Part shown: positions 7,023 through 61,054 of the stretch, one piece after another
How the letters are laid out: every line of letters begins with the position of its first letter
Position numbering within the stretch: the stretch's first letter is position 1
Source of the DNA: Mobula hypostoma
Lineage: Eukaryota
DNA: 64,000 nucleotides
Reading direction: 5' to 3'
Assembly: GCF_963921235.1 (NCBI RefSeq)
Contig: NC_086107.1
Location: 112,222,001-112,286,000 of the forward strand
The notes under the pieces: model-generated
Told to the model about the DNA's origin: nothing
What the model saw: only the letters and a program-made list of their open reading frames with translations
The model's database searches: none
Program-made: the position numbers and the translations under genes

Positions 7023-7031
7023 CACGTGTGT

Positions 7032-33998: not shown

Positions 33999-34707
33999 AC
34001 AAAAAATGCTGGTGAACGCAGCAGGCCAGGCAGCATCTATAGGAAGAGGTACAGTTGACGTTTCGGGCCGGGACCCTTCGTCAGAACTAACTGGAAGAAG
34101 AGATAGTAAGAGATTTGAAAGTGGGAGGGGGAGGGGGAGATCCGAAATGATAGGAGAAGACAGGAGGGGAGGGATGGAGTCAAGAGCTGGAGAAGGGAGA
34201 GGATCATGGGACGGGAAGCCTGGGGAGAGAGAGAAGGGAGGAGGGGAGCCTGGAGGGTGGAGAGCAGGCAAGGAGTGAGAGGGACAGAGGGAGAAAAAAG
34301 AGAGAGAGAAAAAAAGGGGGGGAAATATATAAAATAAATAAGGGATGGGGTGTGAAGGGGAGGAGAGGCATTGACGGAAGTTGGAGATGTCAGTGTTCAT
34401 GCCATCAGGTTGGAGGCTACCCAGACGGAATATAAGGTGTTGTTCCTCCAACCTGAGTGTGGCTTCATCTTGACAGTAGAGGAGGCCATGGATAGACATA
34501 TCAGAATGGGACGTGGAATTAAAATGTGTGGCCACTGGGAGATCCTGCTTTCTCTGGCAGACAGAGCGTAGGTGTTCAGCGAAATGGCCTCCCAGTCTGC
34601 GTCAGGCCTCACCAATATATAGAAGGCCTCACTGGGAGCACCGGACACAGTATATCACCCCAGTCGGTGTGTTGCTTGAATTTCCAGCATCTGCAGATTT
34701 CCTCGTG
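33999..34707 (-). mobile_element. Penelope-like insertion with internal inversion and TSD
   Basis: ATHFNSTSHSDMSIHGLLYCQDEATLRLEEQHLIFRLGSLQPDGMN; 16-bp TSD ttatagttctgctgac at 33983-33998 and 34708-34723. Confidence 0.9.
34052..34089 (-). ncRNA. Minimal type-I hammerhead ribozyme in a Penelope pLTR
   Basis: tagtt-CTGACGA-a-gggtcccggccc-GAAA-cgtc-aactg: intact core, stems I and II pair, palindromic ACGT stem III. Confidence 0.75.
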
Positions 34708-35134
34708 TTATAGTTCTGCTGACCCTGTTTCTCCCTTCACAGATGCTGCCAGACCTTCTGAGTATTTTCTGATTTCATTTCAGGTTGCCAATATCTGCAG
34801 TTTTACTTGGGGACTTTTTTTTTTGGTCAGTGCTGGAAATCTGAAATAGCTACAGGAAGTGCTGGAAAGTCTTAGCAGATCAGGCACGGTAACAGTGCCC
34901 CTCCAGATCAACAAACCCACACCACCCCATTACACCCATGTGACCATGTAGCCCTTACATCTTTGGAATGTGGGAGGAAACCAGAGCACCCAGAGGAAAC
35001 CTACGCAATCACAGAGAGAACTATTTGCGGTCCACGGTGGAATAGAACTGGATCACTGGTATCATAGTAGTGTTATGGTAACTGCTGTGTCGCTCTTCCG
35101 CCCCTAACTGCTACAAGTCGATGTCTCTAAAAGG

Positions 35135-35450
35135 AGGCATCCACCATTAAGGACCCCCTACACCCAGGACATGCCCTCTTCTCATTGCCACCATCAGGGA
35201 GGAGGTACAGGAGCCTGAAGACTCACACTCAGTATTTTAGGAACAGCTTCTTCCCCTCCGCCATCAGATTCCTGAACGGACAGTGAACCCATGAACGCTA
35301 CCTCACGATTTTTGCTCTCTCTTTGCACTGCTTATTTAAATGTTTGAATATATCTTTATTATTATGTATTTTATGTATTGCACGGAACTGCTGCTGTAGA
35401 AGGGAAAACTTTGTGCCACACGTCGGTGAGAAATGACCTGATTCCGATTT
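35135..35450 (+). mobile_element. Rex1/Babar-type LINE 3' fragment
   Basis: IKDPLHPGHALFSLPPSGRRYRSLKTHT. Confidence 0.85.
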
Positions 35451-35912
35451 GGTTTCTGTTCCGCTACCGTGCCATCCCATTTGTGGAAACATCTCCTCTA
35501 CATCTGCCCCGGTAAAGTCTACTGTTAGATTGTTCTATTTTTTTTCTCTTCTGGAAATAAGTTATCGATCCATAAAGCATAGACAGGCCATTCAGCCCAA
35601 CTCACCCATTCCAACCATGGTGCCTCCCCCCCCCATGCTAGTCCCAATTGCCTATGTACCTTTAAATGTCTCTTATCCATGTACTTACCCAAATGTTGCT
35701 CCAGTCTGTTCAATGAATCACTTTGCTCAATTGGTCCCCTTGTGCTTCACGGACCAATTGCTTTGGAACTCAGGTGAAAGCCATGTAGGGGGTGAGGAAG
35801 AGACTGAGAGCATCACAAAAACCAGGGAGACACGAGGAGAAAATGTGAGTGAAGCAGTCAGAGCAAAATATATGAATTAATAGCATGGGTATGAATACAT
35901 TTTTATAAACTG

Positions 35913-36901
35913 CTCTGGACAACAAAGACTTTGCTTCCTGAATACTTTTGGGTGTATCTTATGGATTTTGGACTGCTGATCATGGAAATCACCAATAAAT
36001 TTTCCTATCATGTCTCTTTTTTTAAAGTAATCGCCTATATTTGTTATTTCAATCCATAATTCAGGTCAATTAAAGTGTTGCCAACAATGTAAGCTGAAAA
36101 GCTTTCTATCTTGTCCAGGCATGCCCAGGCATACTTAGGCAGGGTGGATGCTGCCTGGCAGGATAGATTTTAGAAAGGCTATAAAAACACCACGCACTAA
36201 CCATTTTACGCTTTGCGTTTACCTGTATATCGGTTTGTGATCACGTTGATGCACATGCTCTACGTGCATAGCATATTTTGTGTACGCTTTATAATAAAGT
36301 AACAGTATTTTCAGGAGTACTTCTGTTTGCAAAATGTCTCACCAACATTTTATATAAAAGAATACAAAACATTCTTTTATATTTGTGGCAAGCATATGCT
36401 TAGATCTCAAAGACAGGGCATGACTCCTCTTATTAAGAGCGTCGATGAGCTCTACTTTTGCAGCAAAATTGGCGACCAAGACAAAGCTTGGGCTCCTCAC
36501 ATTTGTTGCATTCCCATTTAGATTTCTTCCCTGCAAATCTTGGTACTCTCAGTAACGATCATGGTGAAAGGATTCACTAGGACATTGCGGTCATGGAGAA
36601 ACGGTATCAGGGCAACTGGAATCCATCAATGCTGGCTGATTATTGTTGGACATTTAAGTGAAAAGCCTCAGACACTGAGTACAAATGAGAATCATCAACA
36701 AAACATTTTTAGCTTAGTTCTACTATTGCAAAGTGTCAATTAGCCAATTAAATGCATTATATGCAATGAGTTAATTTCTTGTTTTTTTTCCAAATTCCTA
36801 CGTGATACAAGTAGCCTGAAATTATATCTGTGTTCAGCTTCAAGCAGTCTATCATGAACAAAAAAAAAATTTTGAGGAAGCAACACTTTTGAAAAAATTT
36901 G
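35913..36901 (+). mobile_element. Internally deleted DNA transposon, CMC/Chapaev3-like
   Basis: FFYICGKHMLRSQRQGMTPLIKSVDELYFCSKIGDQDKAWAPHICC fused to LHSHLDFFPANLGTLSNDHGERIH*DIAVMEKRYQGNWNPSMLADYCW; partial terminal similarity (ttgcttcct / aggaagcaa). Confidence 0.7.
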
Positions 36902-37460
36902 GCAGTCCATGGCCTCCTTTACTGCTGCAATGAGGCCACACTCAGGTTGGAGGAGCATCACTTTATATTCCATCTGGGTAGCCTCCAACCTGATGACATG
37001 AACACTGATTTATCAAACTTCCAGTAATTGCACCCCTCCCTTCATCATTCCCCATTCCTGTATCCCTATCTCAGCTTATCTCCTTACCTGCCCATCACCT
37101 CCCTCTGATGCTCCTCCCCTTCCCTTTCATCCACGTTCTTCTGCCCTCTCCTGTCAGATTCCCCCTTCTCCAGTCCTTTAACTCTTTCACCAATCAACTT
37201 ACAAGCTCTTTCCTTCACCCCCTCCCCATCACCTGGTTTCACCTATCATCTACCACCTTGTACGTCTTCCTCCCCTCTCCCCCCCCCCCACCTTCTTACC
37301 ATGACTTCTCCTCTTTGTTTCCAGTCCCGATGAAGGGTCTTGGCCTGAAATGTCAACTGTTTACTCTTCTCCACAGATGCTGCCTGGCCTCCTGAGTCCC
37401 TCCAGCATTTTGTGTGTGTTGCTTTGGATTTCCAGCATCTGCAGATTTTCTTGTGTTTGC
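36902..37460 (+). mobile_element. Penelope-like 3' fragment plus pLTR
   Basis: VHGLLYCCNEATLRLEEHHFIFHLGSLQPD; degenerate hammerhead at 37322-37360. Confidence 0.85.
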
Positions 37461-37825
37461 AAAAAAAAATTGTTACCCTGTGAGCTATTAATCACAGAGT
37501 GGTACAACACAGAAACAAGTCCGTCAGACCATCATGTCCACGCCAACCTTATTGCCCAAATGCACTAATCTCGTTTGCCCACATTAGGCCAGTGTGGTCA
37601 TGGCTGTAAATTTTAATCTTCATAAAATCTGGGCAAAGTAAATGTCTAGAATGTTCAAAGCTTCAGTTGCTTGAACTGGAACACAAGTAAAAGTGTGGGC
37701 ATAATTATAAAATCAATAGCTTTTATCAAATAATTTTAATTATTAGAAAATTGTGGTCTGGGGTAGGGCAAGATGCCAGGCAAAACAAATTTTACAGAAG
37801 AGACTGCAGAAGGATTATAAAAAAA

Positions 37826-38130
37826 ATGCATCCATTAGTTTTGTGAGACCATGGATCTGCGCCTGGAAAGTCTTCACTCTCCAGGGCGCAGGCCTGGGCA
37901 CAGTTGTATGGAAGACCAGCAGTTGCCCATTCTGCAAGTCTCTCCCCTCTCCATGACACCAATGTTGTCCAAGGGGGCATTAGGACCCATACAGCTTGGC
38001 ACCAGTGTCGTCGCAGAGCAATGTGTGATTAAGTGCCTTGCTCAAGGACACAACTCGTTGCCACGGCTGGGGCTCGAACTCACAGCCTTCAGGTCACTAG
38101 TCCAATGCCTTAACCACTTGGCCACGTGCC
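37826..38130 (-). mobile_element. tRNA/CORE-like SINE
   Basis: Reverse copy of 7032-7335. Confidence 0.85.
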
Positions 38131-38658
38131 CACACAGAAAGATTATATGTTGGGGGATATCCAAGGTAAGGAACGAGACCACAGGATTCATGTTGCTTTC
38201 TAGTTCGGGATCCATGGTAGCGGGACAGTTAGCGCGGTACTATTACATCTCAAGGTGTCAGAGTTCAGAGTTCAATTCTGGCTTCCTCTGTAAGGAGTCC
38301 GTACACCCTCCCTGTGGGCGCGTGGATTTTCTCTGGGTGCGGCGGTCGCCATGGTGTCATGACCACAACCTTTTCCTCAAGGTCAGTGAAACCAAAGAGC
38401 TGGTCACTGAGTTCAGAAAGGTGGAGGGCAGTGGACCTGCTACTGAAAGCATTCTGTCTGGATGCTCAAAGGCTTGATATGACAGTTGCTCTGCGCCTGG
38501 CCACAAGAAACTGGAGGGAGCCATGAATGCTACTCAGTGCATCACAGGAACCAGCCTCCCCTCTATGGACATGGGAAAGTCTGCAGAGACTGGAAATCCA
38601 AAGCAACATGTGCTGGAGGAACTCAACAGGTCAGGCAGCATCTATGGAAATGAGTAAA

Positions 38659-38696
38659 CAGTCGACGTTTCAGGCTGAGACCTTTCTTCAGGACTG
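38659..38696 (-). ncRNA. Minimal hammerhead ribozyme in a pLTR fragment (about 38575-38720)
   Basis: cagtc-CTGAAGA-a-aggtctcagcct-GAAA-cgtc-gactg. Confidence 0.65.
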
Positions 38697-39014
38697 GAAA
38701 GGAAGGGGGAAGACACCAATTAAGACAAGGTCTCACTTCCTTCTCCGGTGACTGCAAGAGATCCCACAACACCATTTGCATGATGTCAGGGTTTGGGTAG
38801 TGGATGTGGATGCACCCTAACAAATATTGATCAACATCATAAAAAGGGATTATCATGTTATTATCAACTAATTGAAAAAGACACAGGAGCCATGGTGGTG
38901 TCTACTTAGGTTCTTCAGTGAGGCACTTGCATAATGATGGGGTGACGTAATGATGCAAGTCATTTACGTACTTTTACATCTAACACATAATTATGTAAAC
39001 AACAAAGACAACTT

Positions 39015-39355
39015 AATCAACAATATATTTACAAAGCAATACACAAAATGCTGGAGGAACTCAGCAGGTCAGGTAGCATCCATGGAAATGAATAAACAGT
39101 CGACGTTTCAGGCTGAGACCCTTCTTCAGGACTGAGAAGGAAGAGGAGAGACACCAGAATAAAAATGTGGAGGGAGGGAAAGAAGGACTAGAAAGAAGGT
39201 GGTAGTTGAAACGAGGTAGGTGGGAAAGGTGAAGAGCGAGAGAAGAAGGAATCTGATTGGAGAGGAGAGTTGACCATGGGAGAAAGGGAAGGAAGAGAGG
39301 ACTAAGGGAAAGTGATAGTCAGGTGTGTAGAGGTAAAAGGCCAGAGTGTGGAATA
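39015..39355 (-). mobile_element. Penelope-like pLTR/3' fragment
   Basis: acacaaaatgctggaggaactcagcaggtcagg... plus purine-rich tract. Confidence 0.85.
39097..39134 (-). ncRNA. Minimal hammerhead ribozyme in a pLTR
   Basis: cagtc-CTGAAGA-a-gggtctcagcct-GAAA-cgtc-gactg. Confidence 0.7.
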
Positions 39356-39529
39356 TATTTATAATATTACTGAAATATTAAATATATTGCAGTTAAACCC
39401 ATAAAAGTGAGTCCATAGGTTGTGTTCAGTCATCAGTTCAGTGTTGTGGTGAGTGATGCTGTCCTCACGAGTTCAGTCTATCTGGCTTCCAATATTAAAA
39501 TAGAGTATTGTATTTCATTGCCTGTGAAA

Positions 39530-39952
39530 AGATTCAAGATTGTTTAATGACATTTCCTGTGTGCAAGTGTAAAGGAAAATGAAATAATTGTTACTCCAGA
39601 GCTGATGCAGCCAAAAAAAAGCACAGAAGATAAAGAATACAAAAATAATTTTAAAAACACAATAATTATAAATATGTAAGATAACTTATATACATAGATT
39701 GATCGCAGGTCCATAAAGTGACTCTAGGCTATACATAAGGTGACTGACAGGAAATAATAAAGAAGAGGTGGGTTAGTGGGTGGAGGTGTTGATCAGCCTT
39801 ACTGCTTGAGGAAAGGAACTGTTTTTGAATCTGGTGGTTATGGTGTGGATGCAACGTAGCCTCCTCACTGATAGGACTGGGACAAACAGTCCATGAGCAG
39901 GGTGGGTAGGATCCTTCATGATGTTACTGGCCTACTTCTGGCACCTTTCTAT
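39530..39952 (-). mobile_element. Rex1/Babar-type LINE 3' fragment
   Basis: Reverse NIMKDPTHPAHGLFVPVLSVRRLR; same family as 30080-30490. Confidence 0.8.
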
Positions 39953-39961
39953 ATTTAAGTC

Positions 39962-40310
39962 AATACTCACAACACGCTGGAGGAACTCAGCAGGTTGGGC
40001 AGCATCTGTGGAAAAGAACGGTCGACGTTTCAGGCCGGAACCCTTCGTCAGGACTGAAAAGGGAGGGGGCAGAGACCCTATAAAGAAGGCTGGGGGGAGG
40101 GTGGGAAGGAGAAGGCCGGTAGGTTCCAGGTGAAAAACCAGTAAGGGGAAAGATAAAGGGGTGGGGGAGGGGAGGTAGGGAGGTGATAGGCAGGAAAGGT
40201 GAAGAAAGAATTGGGGAAACACAATGGGTAGTAGAAGGAGGCGGAACCAAGAGGGAGGTGGTAGGCAGCTGGGGGAGGGGGCAGAGTGACATAGGGATAG
40301 GGGAAGGATA
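39962..40310 (-). mobile_element. Penelope-like pLTR fragment, same subfamily as 27972-28535
   Basis: Near reverse complement of 28200-28535; hammerhead core ctgacga...gaaacgtc at about 40020-40056. Confidence 0.85.
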
Positions 40311-41368
40311 AATCATTACCTACCTATTTCCTCAACACTACCTGCCCCTCCACCAATCTCCATATCATCTGCAAACTTGGAAACAAAGCCATCTATTCCA
40401 TTATCTAAATCATTGATGTACAGCAAAAAAAGAAGTGGTCCCAACACTGAACCCCAACAGAAGACCACGAGTTACTGGCAGCCGACCAGGAAAGGATCCT
40501 TTCATTCCCACTCACTGCCTCCTACCAATCAGCTAATGCTGCAACCATGCCAGTAACTTTCCTGTAATATGATGTGCTCGTAACTTGGTAAGCAGCTTCA
40601 TTTGTGGGACCTTGTCAAAAGGCCTTCTGAAAGTCCAAATATACAACATCCACTGCATCCCCTTTATCTATCCTACTTGTAATCTCCTCAAAAAAACTCC
40701 AACAGGTTTGTCAGACAAGATTTTCCCTTAAGGAAGCCATGCTGACTTTGTCCTATCTTGTCCTCTGTCTCCAAATACTCCATAATCTCATCCTTAACAA
40801 TTGACTCCAACAACTGAAGTCAGGCTAACTGTTCTATAATTTCCTTTCTGCTGCCTTCCTCCTTTCTTAAACAGTGGAGTGACATTTGCAGTTTTCCAGT
40901 CCTCTGGCACCATGCCAGAGTCCAATGATTTTTGAAAGATCATTACTAATGTCTCCATAATCTCTACCGCTAGCTCTTACAGAACCCCACGGTGTAGTTC
41001 ATCAGGTCCTGGTGACTTATGTACCCTTAAGTCTTTCATCTTTTTGAGCACCTTCTCCTTTGGAATAGGAACTGCACCCTTCAACATCTGGCACACTGCT
41101 AGTGTCTTCCACAGTGAAGACTGATGCAAAATACTCATTTACTTTACCTGCTATCCTCCTTGCCCCCATTATTATTTCTCCACCCTCATTCTCTAGTGGT
41201 CCTATATCCACTCTCATCTCTCTTTTACTTTTTACATACCTTAAAAGCTTTTACTATCCACTTTGATATTGTTTGCTAGCTTGCTTTCATATTTAATATT
41301 CTCCCTCCTAATGATTCTTTTAGTTGCTCTCTGAAGGTTCTTAAAAGCTTCCCAATCCTCCATCTTCC
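40311..41368 (-). mobile_element. Degraded CR1 LINE, RT N-terminal to core region
   Basis: VDIGPLENEGGEII...NEYFASVFTVED; reverse DFQKAFDKVP-like and KFADD motifs. Confidence 0.85.
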
Positions 41369-42389
41369 ATAGATCTCATTATCTCATGTTCTTGTTATTT
41401 ATTGCTTTTTAGTTATATTTGCATTTGTACAGTTGTTGTCTTCTGCACTCTGGTTGATCTCTCATTGATCCTGTTAGAGTTACTATTCTATAGATTTCCT
41501 GAGTAAGCCCGCAAGAAAAATTAATCTCAAGGTTGTATATCTACTTTGGTAATAACATATACTTTGAACTTCGAACATTTACACCACTCTAGGTAAGGAA
41601 GACAGATTCCCCTACCTGTCAGACATTAGTGAACTGATTTTTGTTCCTTTTTGCAACCTTCCCTTTCTCTTGACTCAATTTCCAGTTTATTGTCTGCTGA
41701 CTGCACAACCAAACAAAACAACGTTCCTCTGAACCACAGTGCACCCACAAAACATATATCACACCAAGGACATTAAACAAAATATTAACAAAAACTAGCT
41801 AATAAAATATAATTTTAAAAATGCATGTGAAGTGTGCCACGCAGGTAAACAATAAACAGCTTACTGTCCCAGTGACGAGACCTCGGTGGTGGCAGGGTAT
41901 TCATTAGTCTCACAGCCTGAGGGAAGAAGCTGTTACCCAGTCTGGCAGTCCTAGTCCTGGTGCTCCTGTACCTCCTGCCTTACGGTGGTGGGTCAAAGAG
42001 ATTGTGGGATGGGTGCTAGGGATCCACATGGACGACACCCAGGTCAGGAATGGACCTGGGTCTCGGGAATTGCTACGAGCTGAGTCATCGAGGTGCTACG
42101 CAGGACGGTGCAATCGATAATCTGCTGCAGGAAATCGGCCGGTCGGGCAGCACCTGCGGGAAGAAAGGATTTGCCGACATTTCGGGTCGAAACCCTGCAT
42201 CAGAACTGAGAGAGGAGTGAAGAGATGGCCACTGTATAGAGGGGGAAGGGGGCAGTGGTGAAACAGCGGCCGCATCAATTGGTGAACTAGGGAGGGATGG
42301 TAGGTAATACCTGGTTGGGGGGAGGGGGGGCAGACAGTGACAGGTGAATGATAGATTGAGGCCAACAAGGAGAAATAGAGGAAAAATTA

Positions 42390-42960
42390 TAGACATAAGA
42401 GGTTCTGCAGATGCTGGAAATCCCGCGCGACACGCACAAAACAACACAGACAAACCGCTGGAGGAACTCAGCAGGTCAGGCAGCATCTATGGACAAGAGT
42501 AAACAGTGGAGGTTTCAGGCCGAGACCCTTCATCAGGACAGAGAAGGAAGGGCGGAGATGCCTGAATTAAAAGGTGGGGTGAGGGGAAAGAGGCTGGTTG
42601 AAAGGTGGTGGGTGAAGCCAGGTGGGTGGAAAAGGTCAAGGGCTGGGGAAGGAGGATGTCTGATAGGAGAGGAGAGTGAACCGTAGAAGAAAGGAAAGGA
42701 GGAGGGGACCCTGGTGGAAGGGATAGGCAAGTGAGAAGAGGTGAAGGGTCAGAGTGGGGAATCTTGTGCACCATAACGAGAAATCAATATTCACACCATA
42801 AGTTTGAGGATACCCAGACTGAATATAAAGTGTTGTTCCTCCACTCTGAAGATAGGCTCATCGTGGCACAAGGGGAGGCCGTGGACCGACATGTTGGAAT
42901 GGGAATGGAAATCAGAATTAAAATCTTGGCCACCGGGAAGCCCTGCTTGTGGAGGGAGGT
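42390..42960 (-). mobile_element. Penelope-like 3' fragment plus pLTR
   Basis: FNSDFHSHSNMSVHGLPLCHDEPIFRVEEQHFIFSLG. Confidence 0.85.
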
Positions 42961-43917
42961 GTGGATGTGCTCGACACAAAATACTGGAGGTCAGGCAGCA
43001 TCTATGGAGAGGAATAAAATGAAGTGTTGACTGTTTATTCATTTTCATAGATACCAGCTGACCTGCTGAGTCCCTCCAGCGCTTTGTATGTGTTGCTCAA
43101 AAAATAATAGATGAGTCTCTGTAACAGAGAAATTTCATCATAAATATTGGAAGCCAATGCATGCTCTGGTATTTTCAATTTTTAACCATTCCCAGGAGAT
43201 GAATTGTCCTTCTGGCAATCATTAGCTATCATGTTCAATTGTCATTCAACTATACATGATACAGCCAAACAAAACTGTGTTACTCTAGGGCAAAGTTGCA
43301 AAACATAGAACCCAAATTCATACTCAGCGCAAGACACCTATAGCACATATAAGATAGAGGTAAATAGTCACACAGCAAGAGCAATATAGTTCGAATCCCT
43401 GAGGCCATGAATGTTGCAGCAGTCTGCAATCAAACACGGTACAGCTTGTCTTCTGCTGAGTGTACACTGGAGGGCAGCGCTGATGCCACCAGCATGGACG
43501 CCTGACCACACTGCTTCTGGCACCGAATCCAACGCCTTCTCTTCTCAATGGCAGCAAACTAGCAAGTCCGCAGCTTGAGGTCTAGTCCTCGCTATAACCA
43601 AGGACGTGCAGCTCCCCTGCCATTCACCAACAAACCAGCAAAGCTGACTTGCAGCATTCCACGTTACCAATGTCCAACAGAGTCTTGCGACCACAAGAAA
43701 AGCAACTAAGGCAATCACACCAGCTTCGCGCACTGACTCAGATGCCTTTCTGCCGCAGGCAGCAGCACCGTCCACAGCAAGCCCAGCTCCTTCCGTTTCC
43801 CCGCCGGCGAGCAACCCGTTTATGGGCTAGACCCGCAGAACTTTACGTTCTTAACGTTCAGCAGGGTCTCGCAGTCATAAAAAAAATACTTTTAACTAAG
43901 ACAATAATGCCTTTGCA

Positions 43918-44146
43918 GCACACACAAAATGCTGGAGGAACTCAGCAAGCCAGGCAGCATCTATGGAAAAGAGTAAACAGTCGACGTTTCGGGTTGAAAC
44001 CCTTTATCATGAGTCCTGCCAAAGGGTCTCGGCCGGAACGTCGACTGTTTACCCTTTTCCGCAGATGCTGCCTGACCTGCTGAGCTCCTCCAGCATTTTG
44101 TGTGCGTTACTCTGGGTTTCCAGCATCTGCAGATTCTCTTGTGTTT
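43918..44146. repeat. Inverted pair of Penelope pLTR ends (palindromic unit)
   Basis: cacacaaaatgctggaggaactcagc...cagtcgacgtttc / gaacgtcgactg...gctgagctcctccagcattttgtgtg. Confidence 0.85.
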
Positions 44147-45061
44147 TCGATTTATGAGGAAGCTGGATAAACCAATAAAGGAAAAAAGAATAGAGGGTGA
44201 TGTTTTTGGAGAGTAGGGGGTTTGATGATCATGGATGGCTAGAGGCTAACGAGGAGCAGAAAGGAGATGGTGGTTCCATGGTAGCGTAGCAGTTAACGAG
44301 ACACTATAATAGCCAAGGGTGACGGAGTTCAGATTTCAATTTCAACATCATCTGTAAGGAGTTTGTACGTCTTCCCTGTGGAATCCGTGGGTTTCCTCTG
44401 GGTGCTCCAGTTTCCTCCCACAATCCAAAGGCATACCGGTTGGTGGGTTAATTGGTCATTGTAAATTGTCCCATGATTAGGCCGGGGTTAAATTGGGGGT
44501 TGCTGGGCGGCGGGGCTCAGAGTGCTGGAAGGGCCCACTCTCTAAAAATAAACGCACACAGAGCTACTGAGCTAAGCGTTCCTGCACCATGCTGGAAGCC
44601 CAAAGTCATTCCCTGAAACATAAATTTGCAGAACTGCCTGTCAGAAATTAATGCATCAATTGAGCTTGAGTTAGTTGCAACCAAACAGTTAGTGAATAGT
44701 GCTGTTATGTTTTATACAAATGCTGATGCTCTCATTAGACCATTTAGGAATCAACATTTAATTAACTCTCATCGGTTACAATACATCAGTCCCGGATCAC
44801 ACACATGCAGCCCTCCCACTGGCACCTCTTTCCACCCAAACCCTCACAACGGTTTGACTATCGCATTTTACATCAATGGAGAGCTCTACTCTGTGTCTGG
44901 ACCATTGGCGGGCGAGTGGAGAGGAGAAGGCAGAAAGGAGAGTGGAGAGAAAGCTTCACTTTGGGCACTCCGTGGCCACTTTCTTTCTCCCAGGGTAGGA
45001 GAGTCTGGGACTAGAAGGCATTGATTTAAGGTGAGAGGGGAAACATTTAAAGGGGGCCCGA

Positions 45062-45560: not shown

Positions 45561-46087
45561 GAAGCGTCTTGTTTGGCCAACCGTAAGCATATGGGACCAT
45601 TTCAGGTAGGCAGCTTGGTCAGTATGGTCAAGTTGTGTGGAAGGTATATTTCTATGGTGATAAGCTAACTGATAAGCTGCCTGATAGATCTTGTTGGAAT
45701 ATGAATTAAGTTTCGCTCTCTCCCAGGGAACCCTTAATTAAAGTGGAACCATCAGACCTATTGATTCTTTCCACGTCTGTGGAAGTGTGCCTTAACTTGG
45801 CAGCAGTGCACAACAGTGTCACCAAACACCTGCTGAAAAAAGTATATCAGGTAAAAGCCTGAGGAAGAAATATTGGGAATGAATGTTGGGGATGGATATT
45901 GAGAACAAACATGGGTACATTCGATCAATTGTACCTCACACCCAGTAAACATGGACTTTGGTCCTTTTTATCAGTGGATCTCTTCCAGATAATCGCAAAT
46001 GAATAATGTATTCTCTGCATCTCATCTTTTCTCAGTGGGGGTATATCTTCATTAGAAGTCATCCACTGAAATCTCCTTTTAAGATAC

Positions 46088-46636
46088 AGACAGTTGTCAC
46101 CTTATTAGCTACCTCCTGGACCTAATAAAGTGGCCACTGAGTGTATGTTTGTGGTCTTCTGCTGCTGTAGCCCGTCCACTTCAAGGTTGGATGTGTTGTA
46201 CATTCAGAGACGCTGGTTTGCACACCACTGTTGCAATGTGTGGTTATTTGGGTTACCGTCACCTTTCTGTGTGCTTGAACCAGTCTGGCCATTCTCATCT
46301 GACCTCTCTCATTAACAAGGCGTTTTCACCCACAGAACTGCTGCTTGCTGGCTTTTTTTTTTGTTTGTTTTTTTTTACACCATTCTCTGTAAACTCTAGA
46401 ATCCGTTGTGTGTGAAAATCCCAGGAGATCAGCGGTTTCTGACACCAACAATCATTCTACAGTCAAAGTCACAGATCACATTTCTTCTCCGTTCTGATAT
46501 TTGAACAACTGAACCTCTTGACCATGTCTACTTACTTTTATACATTGAATTGCTGCCACATGATTGGCTGATTAGATACTTGCATTAATGAGCAAGTGTG
46601 CAGGCATACATAATAAAGTAGCCAATGGGTGTATAC
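46088..46636 (-). mobile_element. Non-autonomous Tc1-derived element
   Basis: Reverse copy of 24980-25554 with taataaagtggccactgagtgta TIRs. Confidence 0.85.
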
Positions 46637-46749
46637 CTCTGTTAGGTCACCCTTAAGATTCATATCCACCAGTGAAAAATGCCCCATCTTTTCCCATCTG
46701 TCCTTGTAACTCAATGCCTCTATTCCTGGTATTGTCTTTGTGAACCTTT

Positions 46750-47385: not shown

Positions 47386-48231
47386 CCTTTCAAGCCTAAT
47401 AACATCCTTACAAAGACCGAGTTAGATATGTGGGCTGAGATGGTGTGGTGAGAGTTATTATATTATCCCCTCACTGATTGGGTCTGTTTTCTTATGTGGG
47501 TGCAGAAAATCAGTAGAACATGAAGACCAGTAGGAGCTTTCTCTCTGGAGGCCTTGGTTAATATTCCTCTTTCAGTAAAGATTAGCTTCTTTTGGCACAC
47601 ATACATCAAAACATCGAAATATTCAGTGAAATACATTGTTCGTGCCAACAACAAAGTCCAAGAATGTGCTGGGGGCAGCCCACAAGTGTTGCCATGCTTC
47701 CAGTGCCAATGGAACATGCCCACAACTTTCTAACTAACCTGTATGGTACCTCTTTGGACTGTGGGAGGAAACCAGAGCACCTGGAGGAAACCCCGTGGTG
47801 AGGGAGCAGGGTTAGCATACAAACTACTTACAGACAGCAATGGGAATTTAACCTCGATCTTATGGCTGTAAAGTGTTATGCTAACCGCTACACTACCAAG
47901 TGTTACCGCACTAAAACATGTTATTCGGTTAACATTGATTTCCTGTTTGTGGAAGCTCACTGCTGACAGTTTCTCTGATGCTTTTCCCTGTCCTGTGTTG
48001 TTTTTCCAACAACAATGACTAATTATTAACAAAGAGTATGTAATTGTCTCTAAGAAGTGTGTCGGCAGTAACCCCAGAAGAAGAAGGGTATAGTAAACTA
48101 TTCTAGATTAGTTTACAAAAGCAAAGATTTATGTCAGAGATTAAAGAAAATATGAAACTCCACCAGTTCCAATCTCATTGAAGATTTCAGTTTTCTCAGG
48201 ATCATTGTCGGGAGACTGACATAGATCACTG

Positions 48232-49530
48232 CGCAACACACACAAAAAGCTGAAGGAACTCAGCAGGTCAGGCAACATCTATGGAAATGTTGCTGGTGGC
48301 CAGTGCGATCATGTTTGCTGTTGTGTGCTGGGGCAGCAGGCTGAGGGTAGCAGACACCAACAGAATCAACAAACTCATTCGTAAGGTCAGTGATGTTGTG
48401 AGGATGGAACTGGACTCTCTGACGGTGGTCTCTGAAAAGAGGATGCTGTCCAAGTTGCATGCCATCTTGGACAATGTCTCCCATCCACTACATAATGTAC
48501 TGGTTGGGCACAGGAGTACATTCAGCCAGAGACTCATTCCACCAAGATGCAACACAGAGCGTCATAGGAAGTCATTCCTGCCTGTGGCCATCAAACTTTA
48601 CAACTCCTCCCTTGGAGGGTCAGACACCCTGAGCCAATAGGCTGGTCTTGGACTTATTTCCTGGCATAATTTACATATTACTATTTAACTATTTATGGTT
48701 TTATTACTATTTAATAGCCAATAGACAGGTCCTGGACTTATTTTCCATCTGGCATAGTTTTGCATTTTGTTGTCTGATTGTTGGGGTTTTTTGTATTGCT
48801 ATATTTACGTTCTATTCTTGGTTGGTGCAGCTGTAACAAAACCAAATTTCCCTCGGGATTAATAAAGTATATCTATCTATCTATCTATCTATCTATCTAA
48901 TTATTTATGGTGCAACTGTAATGAAAACCAATTTCCCCCGGGATCAGTAAAGTATGACTATGACTATAAATGAATGTCCAGTAGATGTTTCGGGCTGAGA
49001 CCCTTCATCAGGACTGGAAAGGATGGGGGCAGAAGCCAAAATAAGAAGGTGGCTAGGAGGGGAAGGAGGACAAACTAGAAGGTGATAGGTGAGGGGGAAG
49101 GTAAGTGAGTGTGGGTGTGGGGATGAAGTAAGAAGCTGGAAGGTGAGAAGTGGAAAAGGCAAAGGGTCAGAAAAGAAGGAATCTGATAGGAGAGTTGAAA
49201 GTGGATCATCTGAGAAAGGGAAGGAGAAGGGGAACCAAGAGGAGGCGATAGGCAGGTGAGAATAAGAGGCAAGAGCGGGGAAATAAAGAAGGGAGAAGTG
49301 GGAGGGAAAGCAATTTCTTGGAAATTGGAGTAATGAATGTTCATGCTGTCAGGTTGGAGGCTTCCCAGACGAAATATAAGGTGTTGTTCCTCCAACCTGA
49401 GAGTGGTCTCATTATGGTAGAAGAGAAAGCCATGGGCCTACAGGTCAGAATGGGATTGGGAATCGGAATTGAAATGGTTGGCCTTCAGGAAATTCCACTT
49501 TTTGTGGATGAAGCTGAGGTGCTTGACAGA
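48232..49530 (-). mobile_element. Penelope-like 3' fragment split by a Rex1 insertion
   Basis: EEQHLIFRLGSLQPDSMNI; pLTR broken at aaatg (about 48285 and 48968). Confidence 0.85.
48288..48966 (+). mobile_element. Rex1-like LINE 3' end with a nested sister-family 3' UTR
   Basis: VASAIMFAVVCWGSRLRVADTNRINKLIRK...; (ATCT)n and (ATGACT)n tails. Confidence 0.9.
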
Positions 49531-49589
49531 TCCTTGAGTTGGTTTTTGATTGGTTGTTAGATTTGTGCAGTTCCTTAAATGATATTCTC

Positions 49590-49925
49590 CGAGAGGACCA
49601 GAACCTTCTTGTAGGGTTTGGAGGCTTGTGTGCCTCAATGATCCAGAGAGCTACATTGGCTGGAGTTAGGGCCTTGTGCTTTGGCTCTAGGGAGGGTGAC
49701 CCATGACAAACAGATTAAAGGATAGGGCCCAGACTAAGAGTGGACCACCAGACCTCGAATTTCAGTGGGGGGGGGGGTCAGCTCAGGGCTAACAACCCTG
49801 ACTGGTCAAAAAAGATTGTTACGGATATAGCAGTAAAGAATCCTTCCATATCTTTGTGTAACAGTATGGAGATTGAGGACCTTCATTGCTGCCGTAAACA
49901 CCAGGGGCATAACGGGAAGTAAGCA
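49590..49925 (+). mobile_element. Bipartite non-autonomous RTE-derived element
   Basis: RTE-type 5' UTR joined to an ORF-terminal remnant RTFIAAVNTRGITGSK and short agtaagc tail. Confidence 0.65.
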
Positions 49926-49934
49926 AGTTAGAAG

Positions 49935-50410
49935 TTGTGAACTGCATGTGGAAGAGTTTTTAAAGTGGAAAGGCTGTTGCATCGGAGCGGTTCCACTCTC
50001 TCAATCTCAGAATTTCAGGGTCCAGTCATCACAACTGGTGTCTTCCTTGATTGCAGGAGATGACCATGACTTCTTCCGTGCTTTGTCATGTCCTTTGCTC
50101 TCCAGGAACCGCCTTCCTGCCATTCGAGCTCACTGTTGATCTTATCCACCCAGATGGCCAGAACTGACTTCATATGCTAAGACGGGCATGTCCCTGTCTC
50201 CCCAGGGTATGAGGCACACTGGCTACCCTCACTTGGCCTGCCTGTTGAAATGGTTTACTGGGGTGTGGCTGCTTTCAAATGCAAACAGCTGCTTGGAGCC
50301 AGAGGTGAGAGCTGAGTTTCTGGTGGGAAGCAAAGGTGAGTGAGCTATACCAGAATGGACACGACAAGCTCCTTCACCAGAGGTGCTACCCATCCATGGA
50401 CACTCCACAC
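49935..50410 (-). mobile_element. Non-coding RTE-like repeat; second copy at 54230-55500 is split by Penelope
   Basis: Shared blocks ttttaaagt...ccactctct...gtcttcct...ggcatgtccct...ggctacc...ccatggacactcc in both copies. Confidence 0.55.
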
Positions 50411-50659
50411 GACCCTCTCCTACCTCCCTGAGTTAGCAGTGCCTGCAAATGAACTTGCCAATGGTACCACATGGATGGGGGGGTTCTGTTGGTCTCCTAC
50501 CAGAAGATAACTTCCCACACTTCTGGAATCTCAAGGCATCCTTTCCCTACAAAGTGCCAGTAACCACACTTCACGTGCATTTCATTGGTTGTAAAGCACT
50601 ACCAGATATTTCTATAAGATAGAGAGATGGAGATAAGTGAGATAGAGAGCTTAGTGACA

Positions 50660-51420
50660 TTGTGTCATGACCACAACCTTTCCCTCAATATCAACAAGAT
50701 AAAAGAGCTGGTCATTGACTTCGGAAAGGGAGTCAGAACATATGTTCCTCCACCGTGTTGAGGTTGAGAGGGTTGAGAACTTCAAGTTCCCAAGTCTGAA
50801 CGTTACCAATTGGCTATCCTAGTCCAACCACATCGTTATCACGGCCAAGGCAACTCACCAGCTCCTCTATTTCCACAGGAGGCTAAAGAAATTCAGCATA
50901 TCCCCATTGATCCATGGATGCATAATGCCTTGGTATGCACACGACTGTAAGCAACCTCAGAGAGTTGTGGACACAGCTCAGCACATCACAGGAACCAGCC
51001 TCACCTTTATGGACTCTTTACTTCTCACTGCTTCAGTAATGCAGACACCATAATCAGACCCTTCCTACACACCCTGGAAATCCTCTCTTCTCCCCACTCC
51101 CATCAAGCATAAAATACAAAAGCCTGAAAGCACGTACCACCAGGTTCAAGGACAGCTTCTACCCTGGTGCGATCAGACTCTTGAATTAACCTTTCATATG
51201 ATAAGATTGACTCTTGGCCTCATAATCTACCTTCTTATGAACTTGCACTTTATCATTTACCTGCACTGCACTCTCTCAGTAGCTTTCACACTTTATTCTG
51301 CGTTGTTCTTGTTTTACCTCATTCTAGCTCAATGGACTGTGTAATGATTAGATCTGTATGAACATTAGACAAACATTTCACTGTATCTTGATACCTGTGA
51401 CAACAATAAGCCAATACCAA
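50660..51420 (+). mobile_element. Degraded Rex1/Babar-type LINE 3' fragment
   Basis: CHDHNLSLNINKIKELVIDFGK...VENFKF...RFKDSFYP. Confidence 0.8.
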
Positions 51421-51799
51421 TGGCTATTTAATCCTGAAGAAGGGTCTCATCCTGAAATGTCGATTCTTTAATCATTTATGTGAATGATGAGTCCCTCCAG
51501 CATTTTGTCTGTGTTTCTCTGTATTTCCAGCGTCTGCAGACACTGTTGTGTGTCTGAATTTTGCTCAACCCTGAATCTCATTGTGTGCTGTCCATGGTGC
51601 TGAAATCTCCTGTTTGAACCCACGCACACTCTGGAGTAGGTCCAGAGCCACGGTAATGAAACATGCTTCAGCTCCACGAGTGCTCAAAGTGACAAAGGAG
51701 AATTTGGGATGTTATTGAGAACAATGACTCAATGCATCGGGAGCACAGACGGATCACTTGTAACCATTTGATGGTACACACTAATTTACAGTACAACGT

Positions 51800-52475
51800 A
51801 TAACCCCTGTTTCCACCCAGGGGGTCAGTGTGGACATGGTGGAGGATTACAAATACCTGGGGATACGAATTGACAATAAACTGGACTGGTCAAAGAACAC
51901 TGAGGCTGTCTACAAGAAGGGTCAGAGCCGTCTCTATTTCCTGAGAAGACTGAGGTCCTTTAACATCTGCTGGATTATGCTGAGGATGTTCTACGAGTCT
52001 GTGGTGACCAGTGTGATCATGTTTGCTGTTGTGTGCTGGGGCATCAGGCTGAGGGTAGCAGACACCAACAGAATCAACAAACTCATTCGTAAGGCCAGTG
52101 ATGTTGTGGGGATGGAATTGGACTCTCTGACGGTGGTATCTGAAAAGAGGATGCTGTCCAAGTTGCATGCCATCTTGGATAATGTACTGGTTGGGCACAG
52201 GAGTACATTTAGCCAGAGACTCATCCCACCAAGATGCAACACAAAGTGTCATAGGAAGTCATTCCTACCTGTGGCCATCAAACTTTACAACTCCTCCCTT
52301 GGAGGGTCAGACACCCTGAGCCAATAGGCTGGTCCTGGACTTATTTCCAGGCATAATTTACATATTACTATTTAATTATTTATGGTTTTATTACTATTTA
52401 ATTATTTATGGTGCAACTGTAACGAAAACCAACTTCCCCCGGGATCAATAAAGTATGACTATGACTATGACTATG
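51800..52475 (+). mobile_element. Rex1-like LINE 3' end, young subfamily
   Basis: VEDYKYLGIRIDNKLDWSKNTEAVYKKGQSRLYFLRRLRSF...; (ATGACT)n tail. Confidence 0.9.
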
Positions 52476-53069
52476 AAACACAAGAAGAGTAGGAATTTCA
52501 AGTTGTTTACATTCTCTGATATTAAATTGAACCATTGAACATGTGACAATAATAAAGAAATACCTATACTTCCTATAACTAAAACCTTCCTTTCCAGGCA
52601 ACGTCCTGCATGGTCCGGTTCAAATCGTTACTCCACGAGGTTCACTCATCTCTACACCCAACAGTGGCTGTGGCCTGCAACAATCACAGTGTGACCTCAC
52701 CTTTGTCAGCTTCAGTTCTGAATGCTATTTGCTTACTTATGTTGTTTGCACATTTTGTTTTTCTTTATTTTCTTCTCTGCATGTTGGGTGTTTGGCAGTC
52801 TTCTTTTGCTTTAATCGGTTCTATTGGGTTTCTTTGTTTTGTAGCTGCCCGTAAAAAGGCGAATCTCAAGGTTGTATAAAGTATACATACTTTGATAATA
52901 AATGCTCCTTGACTTGACTTTGACTTGCACTGCTAAAGTATGATGATCAGAACTGCACATTTTTTTTGGTGGGATACTAAAGGATCACAGATGGGTTGCA
53001 TCAGTTCATGATTCGTGCCAACCATTTGATGAAAGTCTAATTGGAAAAGACACCATATTTTGGATAATA

Positions 53070-53600
53070 AACATGAGAAAGTCTGCAGATGCTAGAAATC
53101 CAAAGCAATACACACAAAATGCTGGAGGAACTCCAGGTCAGGCAACATCTATGGAAATTAATAAATAATCAATGTTTCGGGCCTTCAGGACTGTAAAGGG
53201 GAAGATGCCAGAATAAAAGCTGGGTAGAGAGGAAGGAGACTAGCTAGAAGGTGGTAGATGAAGACAGGAGGGTGGGAAAGGTAAAGCACTGGAATCTGAT
53301 AGGAGTGGAGAGTGAACCATGGGACAAAGGAAGGGAGGAGGGACAAAGTGGGAAGTGATAGGCTGGAGAGAAAAGGTAAGAATCCAGAGTGGGGAATAGA
53401 AGAAAAGGGGAGGGGCGGGATTTTTTTCACCAGAGGAGAAATTGATATTCATTCCATCAAGCTGGAGGTTACCCAGATGGAATATAAGGTGTTGGTCCTC
53501 CACCCTGAGGGTGGACTCATCTTTGCACAAGTAGAGGCATGGACCAACATGTCAGAATGGGAATGGGAATTGAAATTAAGATGTTTGGCCACCAGGAAGT
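53070..53600 (-). mobile_element. Penelope-like 3' fragment plus pLTR
   Basis: VAKHLNFNSHSHSDMLVH...LRVEDQHLIFHLGNLQLDGMNI. Confidence 0.85.
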
Positions 53601-53875
53601 TCAAACTATTTACCTGCTCCATTTGCGGAGGAAACTGCAACTCCCATATTCATTACCTATTTCAGAACCCACATAGCCTGAAATGGACTAAGTCATCCTT
53701 GAATCCTAAAGATCGTCTGAGGAGAGGAATTGCTTTTGTTAATTAAATAGATGAGATCCTATAACGCTCTACAGGCCATCTTGTTAAGTCAGTAGTGTGT
53801 TGTTTCAAATAGTCTAGGGGCAGTACTTGTGCCTTCAGCACACCAAGCCAAATGCAGCACAGATTAGGAATAAAG

Positions 53876-54160
53876 TTCTTCTTCTTCTTCTTCTTAAACC
53901 CATTACCCCTACTAGGGCACAGGCCGGTGACTGAAGCTCACTCAGAGTCCTTTGTCCTGGGCCAAAGGTTGATCACCCCTGTGCCTTCTGCTTTCACCAC
54001 ACGACTTCGTACACCTACTAGGCCAAGGTTTTTCCTCTCCCAGGGATGAAGTCTTTGGAGGTTCTGTTAGAATTTCTAAAACTCTGGGCTTTTATGGAAT
54101 GAGGTTGTGAGCCCCGTGCCCAACCCTCCTTTCGCAGCCGGGCTTGGGACCATCAATGGT
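53876..54160 (-). mobile_element. Short RTE-like non-autonomous element with (AAG)n tail
   Basis: (TTC)n at 53876-53895; reverse UTR-like ggttgtgagccccgtgcccaaccc. Confidence 0.45.
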
Positions 54161-54337
54161 GGAAAGGATATCAGTGGAAAAAACAAGATGAGGAAAGAGT
54201 CCAAGTTAGCTTTACAGTAAAGTTTACGCTGGTTGGTTAGTTGTTGCCCATCATATCTGACAATGACAGGAAACCTGTGCGAGAGAGATTTTAAAGTCTA
54301 AAGTTCTTGATCTCAAAGCTCCACTCTCTTGATCTCG

Positions 54338-55183
54338 CAAACACAAGGAATTCTGCAGATGCTGGAAATTCAAGCAACACACATCAAAGTTGCTGGTGAA
54401 CGCAGCAGGCCAGGCAGCATCTCTAGAAAGAGGTACAGTCGACGTTTCGGGCCGAGACTCTTCGTCAGGACTGGTGAAAGTAAAGCGGTGGGGGCCAGGG
54501 AACTTAAAATCATCGAAAAGTTTAAGAGCGTGAGAAGTGTCGCGAACATAGGTAGGAAGGGATTGAACAAGGGGGGATAAAACCGTGTCGAGGTATGCAG
54601 AAACGAGTTCGGTGGGGCAGGAGCAAGCTGAGACAATAGGTCGGCCAGGACAGGCAGGTTTGTGGATCTTGGGTAGGAGATAGAAACGGGAAGTGCGGGG
54701 TGTGGGAACTATAAGGTTGGTAGCAGTGGATGGGAGATCCCCTGAGCGGATAAAGTCGGTGATGGTGTGGGAGACAATGGCCTGGTGCTTCTTAGTGGGG
54801 TCACGATCGAGGGGTAAATAAGAGGAGGTATTCGTGAGTTGTCGCTGTGCCTCGGCAAGGTAGAGGTCAGTGCGCCAGACTACAACTTATCATCGGGTTT
54901 AATAGTAAGGTTAGGATTAGTGCGGAGGGAGTGGAGAGCAGAGCGTTCCGAAGGAGTGAGGTTGGAATGGGAACAAGGTGCGGTGAAGTCGAGATGGTTG
55001 ATGTCCCGTCGGCAGTTAGCAATAAAGAGATCCAGAGCAGGCAGAAGACCAGAGCGGGGTGTCCATGAAGAGGAGGAGGGTTGAAGACGGGAGAAGGGGT
55101 CATCGGTGGGGGTGGAAGCGTCCTTGCCGAAGAAGTAGGCTTGGAGACGGAGACGGCGGAAGAAGAGTTCCGCATCATGGCGA
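54338..55183 (-). mobile_element. Penelope-like insertion: RT N-terminal fragment fused to the pLTR end, with TSD
   Basis: FFRRLRLQAYF...SNLTPSERSALHSLRTNPNLTIKPDDK, then FYLLPKIHKPACPGRPIVS; 13-bp TSD tctcttgatctcg at 54325-54337 and 55184-55196. Confidence 0.9.
54436..54473 (-). ncRNA. Minimal hammerhead ribozyme in a pLTR
   Basis: cagtc-CTGACGA-a-gagtctcggccc-GAAA-cgtc-gactg (one stem II mismatch). Confidence 0.65.
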
Positions 55184-60966: not shown

Positions 60967-61054
60967 CAGTTAGGGTGGTCTGCACTATTCTGCGATATTA
61001 AATTTACAATTTGCTTTTAAGTATACTTATTCCATTGTCATGGGAGTGCATATT

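Follow-up and report, generated by a model that had tools for sequence, protein, structure and literature searches.

The stretch of DNA analysed here (the window) comprises 64 kb of the Mobula hypostoma genome and contains a dispersed family of repeats that carry a minimal hammerhead motif. A census of the carrier family yielded 33 fragments with a total of 7,450 bases, or 11.6% of the window, and none in a reversed-sequence control. The whole 38-base motif is spanned by 16 copies, and seven copies in the window pass a descriptor of the minimal type-I hammerhead, as against one match in 300 dinucleotide shuffles. The initial annotation had named five intact copies, all on the minus strand, and eight decayed ones. 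All of these were found, along with three full-length copies that it had missed, at about 43978 (−), 44011 (+) and 55947 (−). The features are as follows.

17619..17656 (−): decayed copy, C3 changed
27958..28549 (+): 5'-truncated insertion; 14-bp target duplication 27958-27971 and 28536-28549
27975-28157 (+): GIY-YIG C-terminal remnant in the 27958..28549 insertion
28446..28483 (+): minimal hammerhead; core 11/11, 9/9 stem I/II pairs, U-G in stem III, GUU triplet
33983..34723 (−): single 5'-truncated insertion; 16-bp target duplication 34723-34708 and 33998-33983; order GIY-YIG remnant (34670-34383), pyrimidine-rich 3' region, hammerhead, short 3' end
34052..34089 (−): minimal hammerhead; complete core (11/11) and all 9 pairs of stems I and II; cut predicted at 34057/34056
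34667-34709 (+): inverted 43-nt tail at the 5' end of the 33983..34723 insertion
37322..37359 (+): decayed copy, U4 changed; element ~36878-37460, long 3' end
38659..38696 (−): minimal hammerhead; core 11/11, A-U replaces G10.1-C11.1
~38724-38560 (−): short element bearing the 38659 hammerhead, long 3' end
39097..39134 (−): minimal hammerhead; core 11/11, 10.1-11.1 pair G-U; cut predicted at 39102/39101
~39351-39032 (−): element of the 39097 hammerhead; possible (weak) 10-bp AT-rich target duplication
40019..40056 (−): minimal hammerhead; core 11/11, one stem I mismatch; subfamily shared with the 28446 copy
42171..42208 (−): decayed copy of a divergent subfamily, 57-66% identity to others downstream of the motif
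42504..42541 (−): copy with core 11/11, stems III and I broken; element ~42975-42390
43913..44150: head-to-head inverted pair of short copies, 43978 (−) and 44011 (+), both cores broken
48979..49016 (−): copy with core 11/11 but broken in stem III and in the first pair of stem I; preceded by a GIY-YIG remnant at 49602-49321
51429..51466 (+): hammerhead copy; core 11/11, stems broken in part, accepted by the relaxed descriptor
54325..55196 (−): single insertion; 13-bp target duplication 55196-55184 and 54337-54325; order ORF N-terminal and RT-start remnant, internal deletion straight to the hammerhead, long 3' end
54436..54473 (−): minimal hammerhead; core 11/11, one stem II mismatch
55888..56086: head-to-head inverted pair, 55947 (−) with the motif and 55987 (+) beginning a few bases before the cut site
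60342..60379 (−): copy decayed at U4 and G12, with the long 3' end

The named copies have the architecture originally ascribed to them, with CUGANGA, one extra A, a 4-bp stem II, GAAA, the ACGU palindrome and a GUC triplet, and the cuts predicted after 34057 and 39102 fall where they had been placed. The label 'intact' applies to the core of all five, while the stems carry a mismatch in the copies at 40019 (stem I 4/5) and 54436 (stem II 3/4). Conversely, the plus-strand copy at 28446-28483 had been called decayed; it keeps its full core and all stem I and II pairs, with a G-U pair in stem I, the U-G pair in stem III and the GUU triplet.

Across the 16 copies, the majority letter is the correct one at each core position of the CUGANGA and GAAA boxes, U16.1 and H17 included, and the most variable column is N7, the free core position (5 A, 5 C, 5 T, 1 G). 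The topology is that of type I, with a helix I of 4–5 bp that is open at its ends and a helix II closed by a loop. Stem III is loop-less, and its palindromic 15.2-16.2 pair is C-G in eight copies, U-G in five and unpaired in three. An extra unpaired A lies between positions 9 and 10.1 in all 16, and the 10.1-11.1 pair is G-C in eight, G-U in six and A-U in one, with one gap. With a structure derived from these same copies, 88% of stem cells are paired, compared with 18–41% in slid registers. Covariation among the copies does not exceed that of shuffles (score 0.173 versus 0.159; 117 of 500 shuffles as high). The Rfam search that the initial annotation had proposed gave no hammerhead among 10 matches at E≤1, presumably because the Rfam hammerhead models need a real stem III.

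The carrier had been taken for a Penelope-like element (PLE) with the motif in its terminal repeat (pLTR), and the coding remnants bear this out. An RT remnant (55206-54473, −) shows 92% identity to a Mobula hypostoma protein and 58–63% identity to full-length proteins with RVT_1, a C-terminal GIY-YIG domain and a CxxxxCxxC linker; the DKG motif is intact in the homologues and degenerate in the window's RT copy. Four GIY-YIG remnants (34670-34383, 27975-28157, 49602-49321 and 15586-15711) match the C-terminus of proteins with PF01541, and the first three each precede a hammerhead of the same strand, at 34052, 28446 and 48979 respectively. Overall, a hammerhead follows a GIY-YIG or RT remnant on the same strand in four elements. 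The window's own RT and endonuclease fragments escaped Pfam, which was applied to nine selected ORFs, and their identity comes from the homologues. The window has no start codon of the family's ORF, and no copy in it is full-length or arranged in tandem with a pLTR on either side of a complete ORF, as expected for truncated copies. The Neptune-type CX2-5CxxC linker between RT and EN occurs in most long homologues, and the corresponding region is missing from all window copies. The carrier most likely belongs to the Neptune clade, with several subfamilies, judging by the linker seen in the homologues.

Unrelated DNA separates the copies, which are scattered through the window, and many measure only 100–140 nt. 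Several have their own target duplications: among 30 elements, three are strong (16, 14 and 13 bp) and two weak, the other matches being self-matches or 9-mers at chance level. Among up to 2,000 random flank pairs, four gave repeats of at least 13. In an empty-site check, the joined flanks were spanned by another window sequence in one of five cases (54.4k). Three head-to-head inverted pairs and one inverted tail occur in the window. The 3' ends of 21 copies fall into two classes, 11 short and 9 long with one unclassified, where the long class takes in the 42.5k copy, whose alignment an insertion splits. The two ends lie ~35–40 nt apart, ~65–77 and 102–105 nt downstream of the cut site.

It had been proposed that all intact copies share one strand with a putative minus-strand transcription unit and could cleave host or read-through RNA. 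However, two of the seven passing copies lie on the plus strand (28446-28483 and 51429-51466) and five on the minus strand (p=0.45), so the one-strand claim depends on where the line for 'intact' is drawn. Full motifs are minus in 12 of 16 cases (p=0.08) and fragments in 20 of 33 (p=0.30), and whether a copy passes the descriptor does not depend on its strand (Fisher p=1.0). Core and flank decay at the same pace, with 16/176 versus 38/441 mismatches (p=0.88). All 11 core positions are kept in nine of the 16 full copies, where about six would be expected from the flank rate; a small excess of this kind is expected because the copies were picked by their likeness to the motif, and weak selection on the core may also exist.

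No minus-strand transcription unit was found by ORF and Pfam searches combined with a splice-site scan. Pfam on 273 of the 275 ORFs of at least 45 aa in largely non-repeated sequence, the remaining two being among the nine selected ORFs, gave no host exon, in a search that short or fast-evolving exons could escape; these ORFs returned three weak RT or endonuclease matches and one weak DUF match. A crude splice-site scan gave seven distinct candidates, five plus and two minus, and the single one followed up, at 35644-35844 (+), had no homologue, which is weak evidence. Neither the strand argument nor the cleavage of host RNA is supported: no host exon emerged among these ORFs, the nearest cis dimer is predicted to be costly, and published metazoan minimal hammerheads cut poorly. 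Metazoan minimal hammerheads are reported to show no activity as monomers and low activity as dimers (PMC4209133). In PAc, a Poseidon element of Anolis carolinensis, the hammerhead needed protein in order to cut, and no RNA-seq read ended at its cut site (PMC11167929).

The folding model seldom prefers the hammerhead. The hammerhead is the predicted lowest-energy fold in two of seven short monomers and never the lowest-energy homodimer, and stem I pair probabilities are at most 0.02 in the context of the element. The copies at 39097 and 38659, 438 nt apart, have all 22 pairs of a double hammerhead available. Relative to the free ensemble, their cis dimer is predicted to cost ~18 kcal/mol and the two further pairs modelled 26–28 kcal/mol, in an energy model that has no Mg2+ or tertiary contacts and is not calibrated on a known active dimer.

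Related loci carry the same fold with stem sequences unrelated to those of the window. In 80 related metagenome loci, 22 descriptor matches occur in 19 loci, 19 of them on the coding strand, compared with none in each of 30 shuffles. These matches were selected for pairing; the count (22 versus 0) and the strand (19 sense) are independent of that selection. A match lies within 900 nt of the endonuclease end in only 11 of the 44 related loci with enough downstream DNA. Together, the descriptor matches, the recurrence of the fold in related loci and the published class (PMC4209133) support the reading of the motif as a minimal hammerhead of type I whose palindromic stem III has no loop.

Minimal hammerheads (min-HHR) in metazoan PLE pLTRs were described in 2014 by Cervera and De la Pena and reported in Xena, Poseidon and Neptune elements of fishes (PMC4209133). 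The window's copies share with them the type-I topology without a stem III loop, the palindromic 15.2-16.2 pair, the unpaired base that separates 9 from 10.1, a 10.1-11.1 pair that is most often G-C and a 5-bp helix I, as well as the prevalence of solo copies from truncated elements and of opposite-strand pairs. Helix II differs, with 4 bp here and 7–8 bp in schistosome min-HHR families (PMC4209133). The available part of that paper names no shark or ray, and no earlier description in sharks or rays emerged by title or opening abstract, a search outside which most subscription journals and Repbase lie.

PAc likewise has a pLTR hammerhead, and two RT start sites past it set an optional tail, matching the window's two 3'-end classes (Frangieh et al. 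2024, PMC11167929). Unlike the window family, which groups with Neptune-type-linker proteins, PAc is a Poseidon element whose ORF starts inside the hammerhead (PMC11167929). With Neptune EN+ PLEs the family shares an RT followed by a C-terminal GIY-YIG, the DKG motif, a Zn-finger-like linker (here in homologues), inverted 5'-truncated copies and a tail at either end (Craig et al. 2021, PMC8557442). The 30–40-bp tail of PLEs (PMC8557442, PMC11167929) is matched by the short and long 3' ends. The target duplications of 13–16 bp differ from the microsatellite targets in the Neptune comparison (PMC8557442). Vertebrate genomes can hold type-I hammerheads in very large numbers, 126,247 in axolotl, as non-LTR retrozymes; such retrozymes are present in one sampled chondrichthyan, and an origin from PLE pLTRs has been proposed (PMC7229834; bioRxiv 10.64898/2026.07.22.740005). 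Whereas retrozymes are tandem repeats, and axolotl cores are canonical with tertiary contacts, the window copies are dispersed, minimal and joined to ORF remnants (PMC7229834; bioRxiv 10.64898/2026.07.22.740005).

We consider it very probable that these are minimal type-I hammerheads in the pLTR of an EN+ Penelope-like retrotransposon, and that the dispersed copies were dead on arrival and decay neutrally. In the active element, the motif would lie downstream of the ORF's GIY-YIG end on the coding strand. Since stem III has no loop, the catalytic core would fold only when two copies pair via the palindromic ACGU or when the element protein is present. Its most likely job, judging from the literature, would be trimming tandem precursor RNA. 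The copy ends suggest that reverse transcription starts within the RNA at the two nearby sites past the cut. With both starts past the cut, even very short new insertions would nearly always carry a hammerhead. The dispersed copies would be by-products on both strands, most of them expected to be silent as ribozymes.

A resemblance by chance, in a repeat that merely contains the core words, is scarcely credible. The loose core pattern alone is indeed near chance (13 matches versus a shuffle mean of 7.7; 5 of 100 shuffles as high), Rfam is silent, and the window copies share few source elements and are therefore not independent. However, core, both stems, palindrome and triplet co-occur at the place and on the strand known for Penelope-like elements, and the recurrence of the fold with different stems in distant relatives strongly disfavours chance. 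That intact copies are strand-biased and cut host or read-through RNA, for example as the 39097+38659 cis dimer, is very unlikely. This reading draws on the excess of minus-strand full motifs, on four passing minus copies in a span of 6 kb, including two separated by 438 nt, and on the complete set of dimer pairs. It is opposed by the plus-strand passing copies, the independence of passing from strand, the predicted cost of the dimer, the lack of a host exon among the 273 ORFs, and published minimal hammerheads that are inactive as monomers, weak as dimers (PMC4209133) or protein-dependent (PMC11167929). Moreover, harmful cutting predicts loss from the transcribed strand, not enrichment, and retrozymes are depleted in introns and exons (bioRxiv 10.64898/2026.07.22.740005).

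The 5' ends bear on two further readings. It is improbable that the copies make up a separate non-autonomous family (a SINE-like mini-element or a non-LTR retrozyme) and are not truncated autonomous elements. Consistent with such a family, many copies are only 100–140 nt long, five 5' ends lie at −28 to −33 from the cut site, at the 5' edge of stem I, and the insertion at 54.3–55.2 kb, which has a target duplication to itself, is derived by internal deletion. Yet the 5' ends spread from inside the ORF to +11 relative to the cut site, as truncation predicts; the cluster, noticed post hoc, is not significant once an inverted pair is counted as one event (p=0.11–0.29), and the window has no tandem hammerhead array, tandem units being what defines retrozymes (bioRxiv 10.64898/2026.07.22.740005). 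A possibility of more weight, though still the less favoured one, is that the motif is kept for a non-catalytic role (protein binding, RT positioning, or promoter or 3' splice-site overlap), with cleavage marginal or dispensable. None of 21 aligned copies begins cleanly at the cut site (two start ~10 nt or less upstream of it and are ambiguous; one further copy gave no alignment), and a polypyrimidine tract ending in CAG abuts the motif's 5' edge; in D. virilis, helix I begins where the intron ends (PMC4209133). Catalytic mutants of the anole element left insertion in vitro unaffected (PMC11167929), and Naiad elements thrive without canonical hammerheads (PMC8557442). Against this, the core, the extra 9b nucleotide and the palindrome are kept across distant families with wholly different stems, which fits selection on a catalytic fold. 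Such a role would in any case alter what the motif does, not what it is.

Minimal hammerheads of the retrotransposon pLTR are a known class, and dispersed decaying copies are ordinary for Penelope-type elements; the high local density is the sole mildly interesting feature. The very large genomic ribozyme load inferred from it by the initial annotation is plausible. Scaled up from seven passing copies in 64 kb, the genome-wide number would greatly exceed the 4,000 of coelacanth and 9,000 of Xenopus (PMC4209133), and 10^3 to 10^5 type-I hammerheads per genome are already published (PMC4209133, PMC7229834). We give little credence to the stronger proposal that ~110 passing copies per Mb genome-wide amount to ~10^5 potentially active ones per Gb, a fraction of which cut nascent host RNA, with intact copies purged from the sense strand of introns; if true, the minimal-hammerhead count would far exceed published ones. 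Because copies need a partner or the element protein, this proposal would have a measurable sense-strand fraction cut nascent host RNA, as dimers in cis or trans, during expression of the element. The family is useful material, since its copies are numerous and show clean target duplications, inverted tails and both kinds of RT start end. A genome-wide census could therefore test whether Penelope elements copy cut or uncut RNA, and could also test for selection against intact hammerheads inside genes, both of which are questions left open in PMC11167929 and PMC8557442.

A descriptor was written for the minimal type-I hammerhead. It calls for a helix I lacking no more than one of its five pairs, then CUGANGA, an extra base that may be absent, helix II, GAAA, a dinucleotide complementary to itself and UH. 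It matched seven times in the window, as against once in 300 dinucleotide shuffles. The matches, each given by the lower coordinate of its 38-nt motif, are as follows.

34052, minus strand, hammerhead
38659, minus strand, hammerhead
39097, minus strand, hammerhead
40019, minus strand, hammerhead
54436, minus strand, hammerhead
28446, plus strand, hammerhead
51429, plus strand, hammerhead

The five minus-strand matches are the copies named in the initial annotation, and the cuts predicted there, at 34057/34056 and 39102/39101, are correct. An Rfam scan of the window, one of the checks which that annotation had proposed, returned no hammerhead match at E ≤ 1. Taken alone, the loose core pattern occurs at a count near chance level. 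The window holds 16 full-length motif copies, and a covariance model built from them recovered these copies, by construction, together with three partial ones (E < 0.001). A profile of the longer repeat detected 33 fragments spanning 7,450 bases, with none in the reversed-sequence control. The motif is very likely the minimal hammerhead of a Penelope-like element.

Remnants of reverse transcriptase (RT) and endonuclease upstream on the coding strand bear out a Penelope element as the carrier. The following stretches match homologous element proteins.

55206-54473, minus strand, RT-start remnant
34670-34383, minus strand, endonuclease-end remnant
27975-28157, plus strand, endonuclease-end remnant
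49602-49321, minus strand, endonuclease-end remnant
15586-15711, plus strand, endonuclease-end remnant

For the frame at 54482-54874 (minus strand), 389 of 544 candidates were homologues, the best being a Mobula hypostoma protein (92%), followed by shark proteins (69–75%); this points to a cartilaginous fish, probably a ray, as host. An ORF remnant and a hammerhead occur together in four elements, each of which has the hammerhead on the coding strand and downstream of the remnant. The element runs from the endonuclease end through a pyrimidine-rich 3′ region to the hammerhead and a tail of ~65–105 nt. Several subfamilies are present, with identities of 57–89% downstream of the motif. The copies are truncated; none of those in the window is a full-length or tandem element.

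Among 30 insertions examined, three lie between perfect target duplications (16, 14 and 13 bp), and another two have weak AT-rich duplications of 10–11 bp; in the chance control, which comprised up to 2,000 pairs of random flanks, 4 pairs showed repeats of at least 13. Sorted by 3′ end, 21 copies divide into a short class (11) and a long class (9), whose ends lie ~35–40 nt apart, with one copy unresolved. These two classes correspond to the optional tail of Penelope-like elements, which in PAc, the Poseidon element of Anolis carolinensis, is matched to two internal RT start sites (PMC11167929). In the insertion at 33983-34723, the body runs up to the short 3′ site; the missing 43-nt tail is found inverted at the insertion's 5′ end, within the 16-bp duplication. 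It looks as though both strands, once nicked, had been primed on one RNA at the two RT start sites. The target of this insertion is an older relic of the same repeat in the opposite orientation.

Three head-to-head pairs lie at ~43.0, 44.0 and 56.0 kb, and their inversion junctions (42975-43100, 43913-44150 and 55888-56086) are all within or adjoining the hammerhead motif. The insertion at 54325-55196 is internally deleted, its RT frame being joined directly to the hammerhead through what appears, judging from the homologue's protein sequence, to be a 3-base microhomology. Its empty-site host sequence matches 49953-50065 (70%). Five 5′ ends or junctions lie between −28 and −33 relative to the cut site (43978/44011, 51429, 54436, 55947), a number that is not significant in this sample. 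At this place a polypyrimidine tract runs out in CAG, and a word that looks initiator-like overlaps stem I.

Stem covariation among the window copies did not exceed that of shuffles, which is what post-insertion decay of the copies would predict. In 80 metagenome-contig loci of related elements, a descriptor that also permitted a U-A core and stem III loops of 2–4 nt gave 22 matches in 19 loci (19 on the coding strand), compared with 0 in 30 block shuffles. A sense match followed within 900 nt of the endonuclease end in 11 of the 44 loci having enough DNA there. When applied to 12 related loci, the window covariance model scored six of their hammerheads at E < 0.05. Between families of related loci the stems are wholly different, while the core and palindrome (ACGU, AUAU, AGCU or ACCGGU) are retained, as is the extra base in most matches. 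The most variable column among the window copies is N7, the free core position. Taken together, the matches in related loci, the differing stems around a kept core and the variability of N7 support the view that the fold is under selection in active lineages. Three related loci carry two hammerheads each and are good templates for dimer tests.

L007, 1055-1092 (minus strand) and 3577-3614 (plus strand), inverted
L052, 25-67 and 3444-3486 (plus strand), direct, flanking the ORF
L030, both on the coding strand

For the dispersed copies, the mismatch rate of the core (16/176) is close to that of the 30-column downstream flank (38/441; p = 0.88, in a small sample chosen by motif likeness) and gives no indication that the core is selected once a copy has inserted. 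The initial annotation had placed all intact copies on one strand and suggested that they could cleave host or read-through RNA. The former is not supported, since two of the seven passing copies (28446 and 51429) are on the plus strand, and the minus:plus counts of passing copies (5:2), full motifs (12:4) and fragments (20:13) are all non-significant. The latter is likewise unsupported: ORF domain, splice-site and homologue searches of the window found no host gene, and the core bears no mark of post-insertion selection. An open frame at 35644-35844 (plus strand) stops at a strong splice-donor-like site; with an empty homologue search, it was not accepted as an exon. Folding without Mg2+, tertiary contacts or proteins, uncalibrated on an active dimer, predicts a double hammerhead formed in cis by 39097 and 38659 to lie ~18 kcal/mol above the free ensemble. 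By the same estimates, the core of some copies with C at N7 would pair with its own cleavage triplet. Published assays point in the same direction: the schistosome motif showed no activity as a monomer and low activity as a dimer (PMC4209133), and cutting by the anole element needs protein and is dispensable for insertion (PMC11167929). It is very improbable that these copies cut host RNA to any meaningful extent.

Two other kinds of repeat were noted. Palindromic repeat ends at 61234-61299, 25488-25559, 61050-61116 and 46082-46148, matching Rfam mir-9256 under the gathering score, probably represent the inverted termini of a DNA transposon or MITE. Another repeat, whose head is tRNA-like (37975-38136, 7027-7284 and 12638-12886; weak Rfam tRNA match at 38062-38128), is probably a SINE. 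A second, unrelated and decayed minimal hammerhead, with a 6-bp stem II and GAAA changed to GAGA, lies within 18460-18760 (minus strand), ~130 nt past an ORF end that we take to resemble a Penelope/Poseidon endonuclease C-terminus; this ORF end had no match in the related loci.

That the motif acts catalytically in the active element is moderately likely. The endonuclease would nick the target and RT would then start internally just downstream of the hammerhead, as PMC11167929 suggests; this would account for the presence of the motif in nearly all short copies. A tandem precursor RNA may be trimmed with the help of a dimer or a protein (compare PMC4209133 and the review PMC6765202). PMC4209133 describes the minimal hammerheads of Penelope pLTRs, with their palindromic stem III, as solo copies numbering thousands and among the Neptune elements of fishes. 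Type-I motifs number >6,000 in a coral and 126,247 in axolotl (PMC7229834), and retrozymes are present in the one chondrichthyan of a 2026 preprint (bioRxiv 10.64898/2026.07.22.740005). In the limited literature covered, no title or opening abstract described this ray family. We conclude that the initial annotation correctly recognised a known kind of element, here in a new family member.
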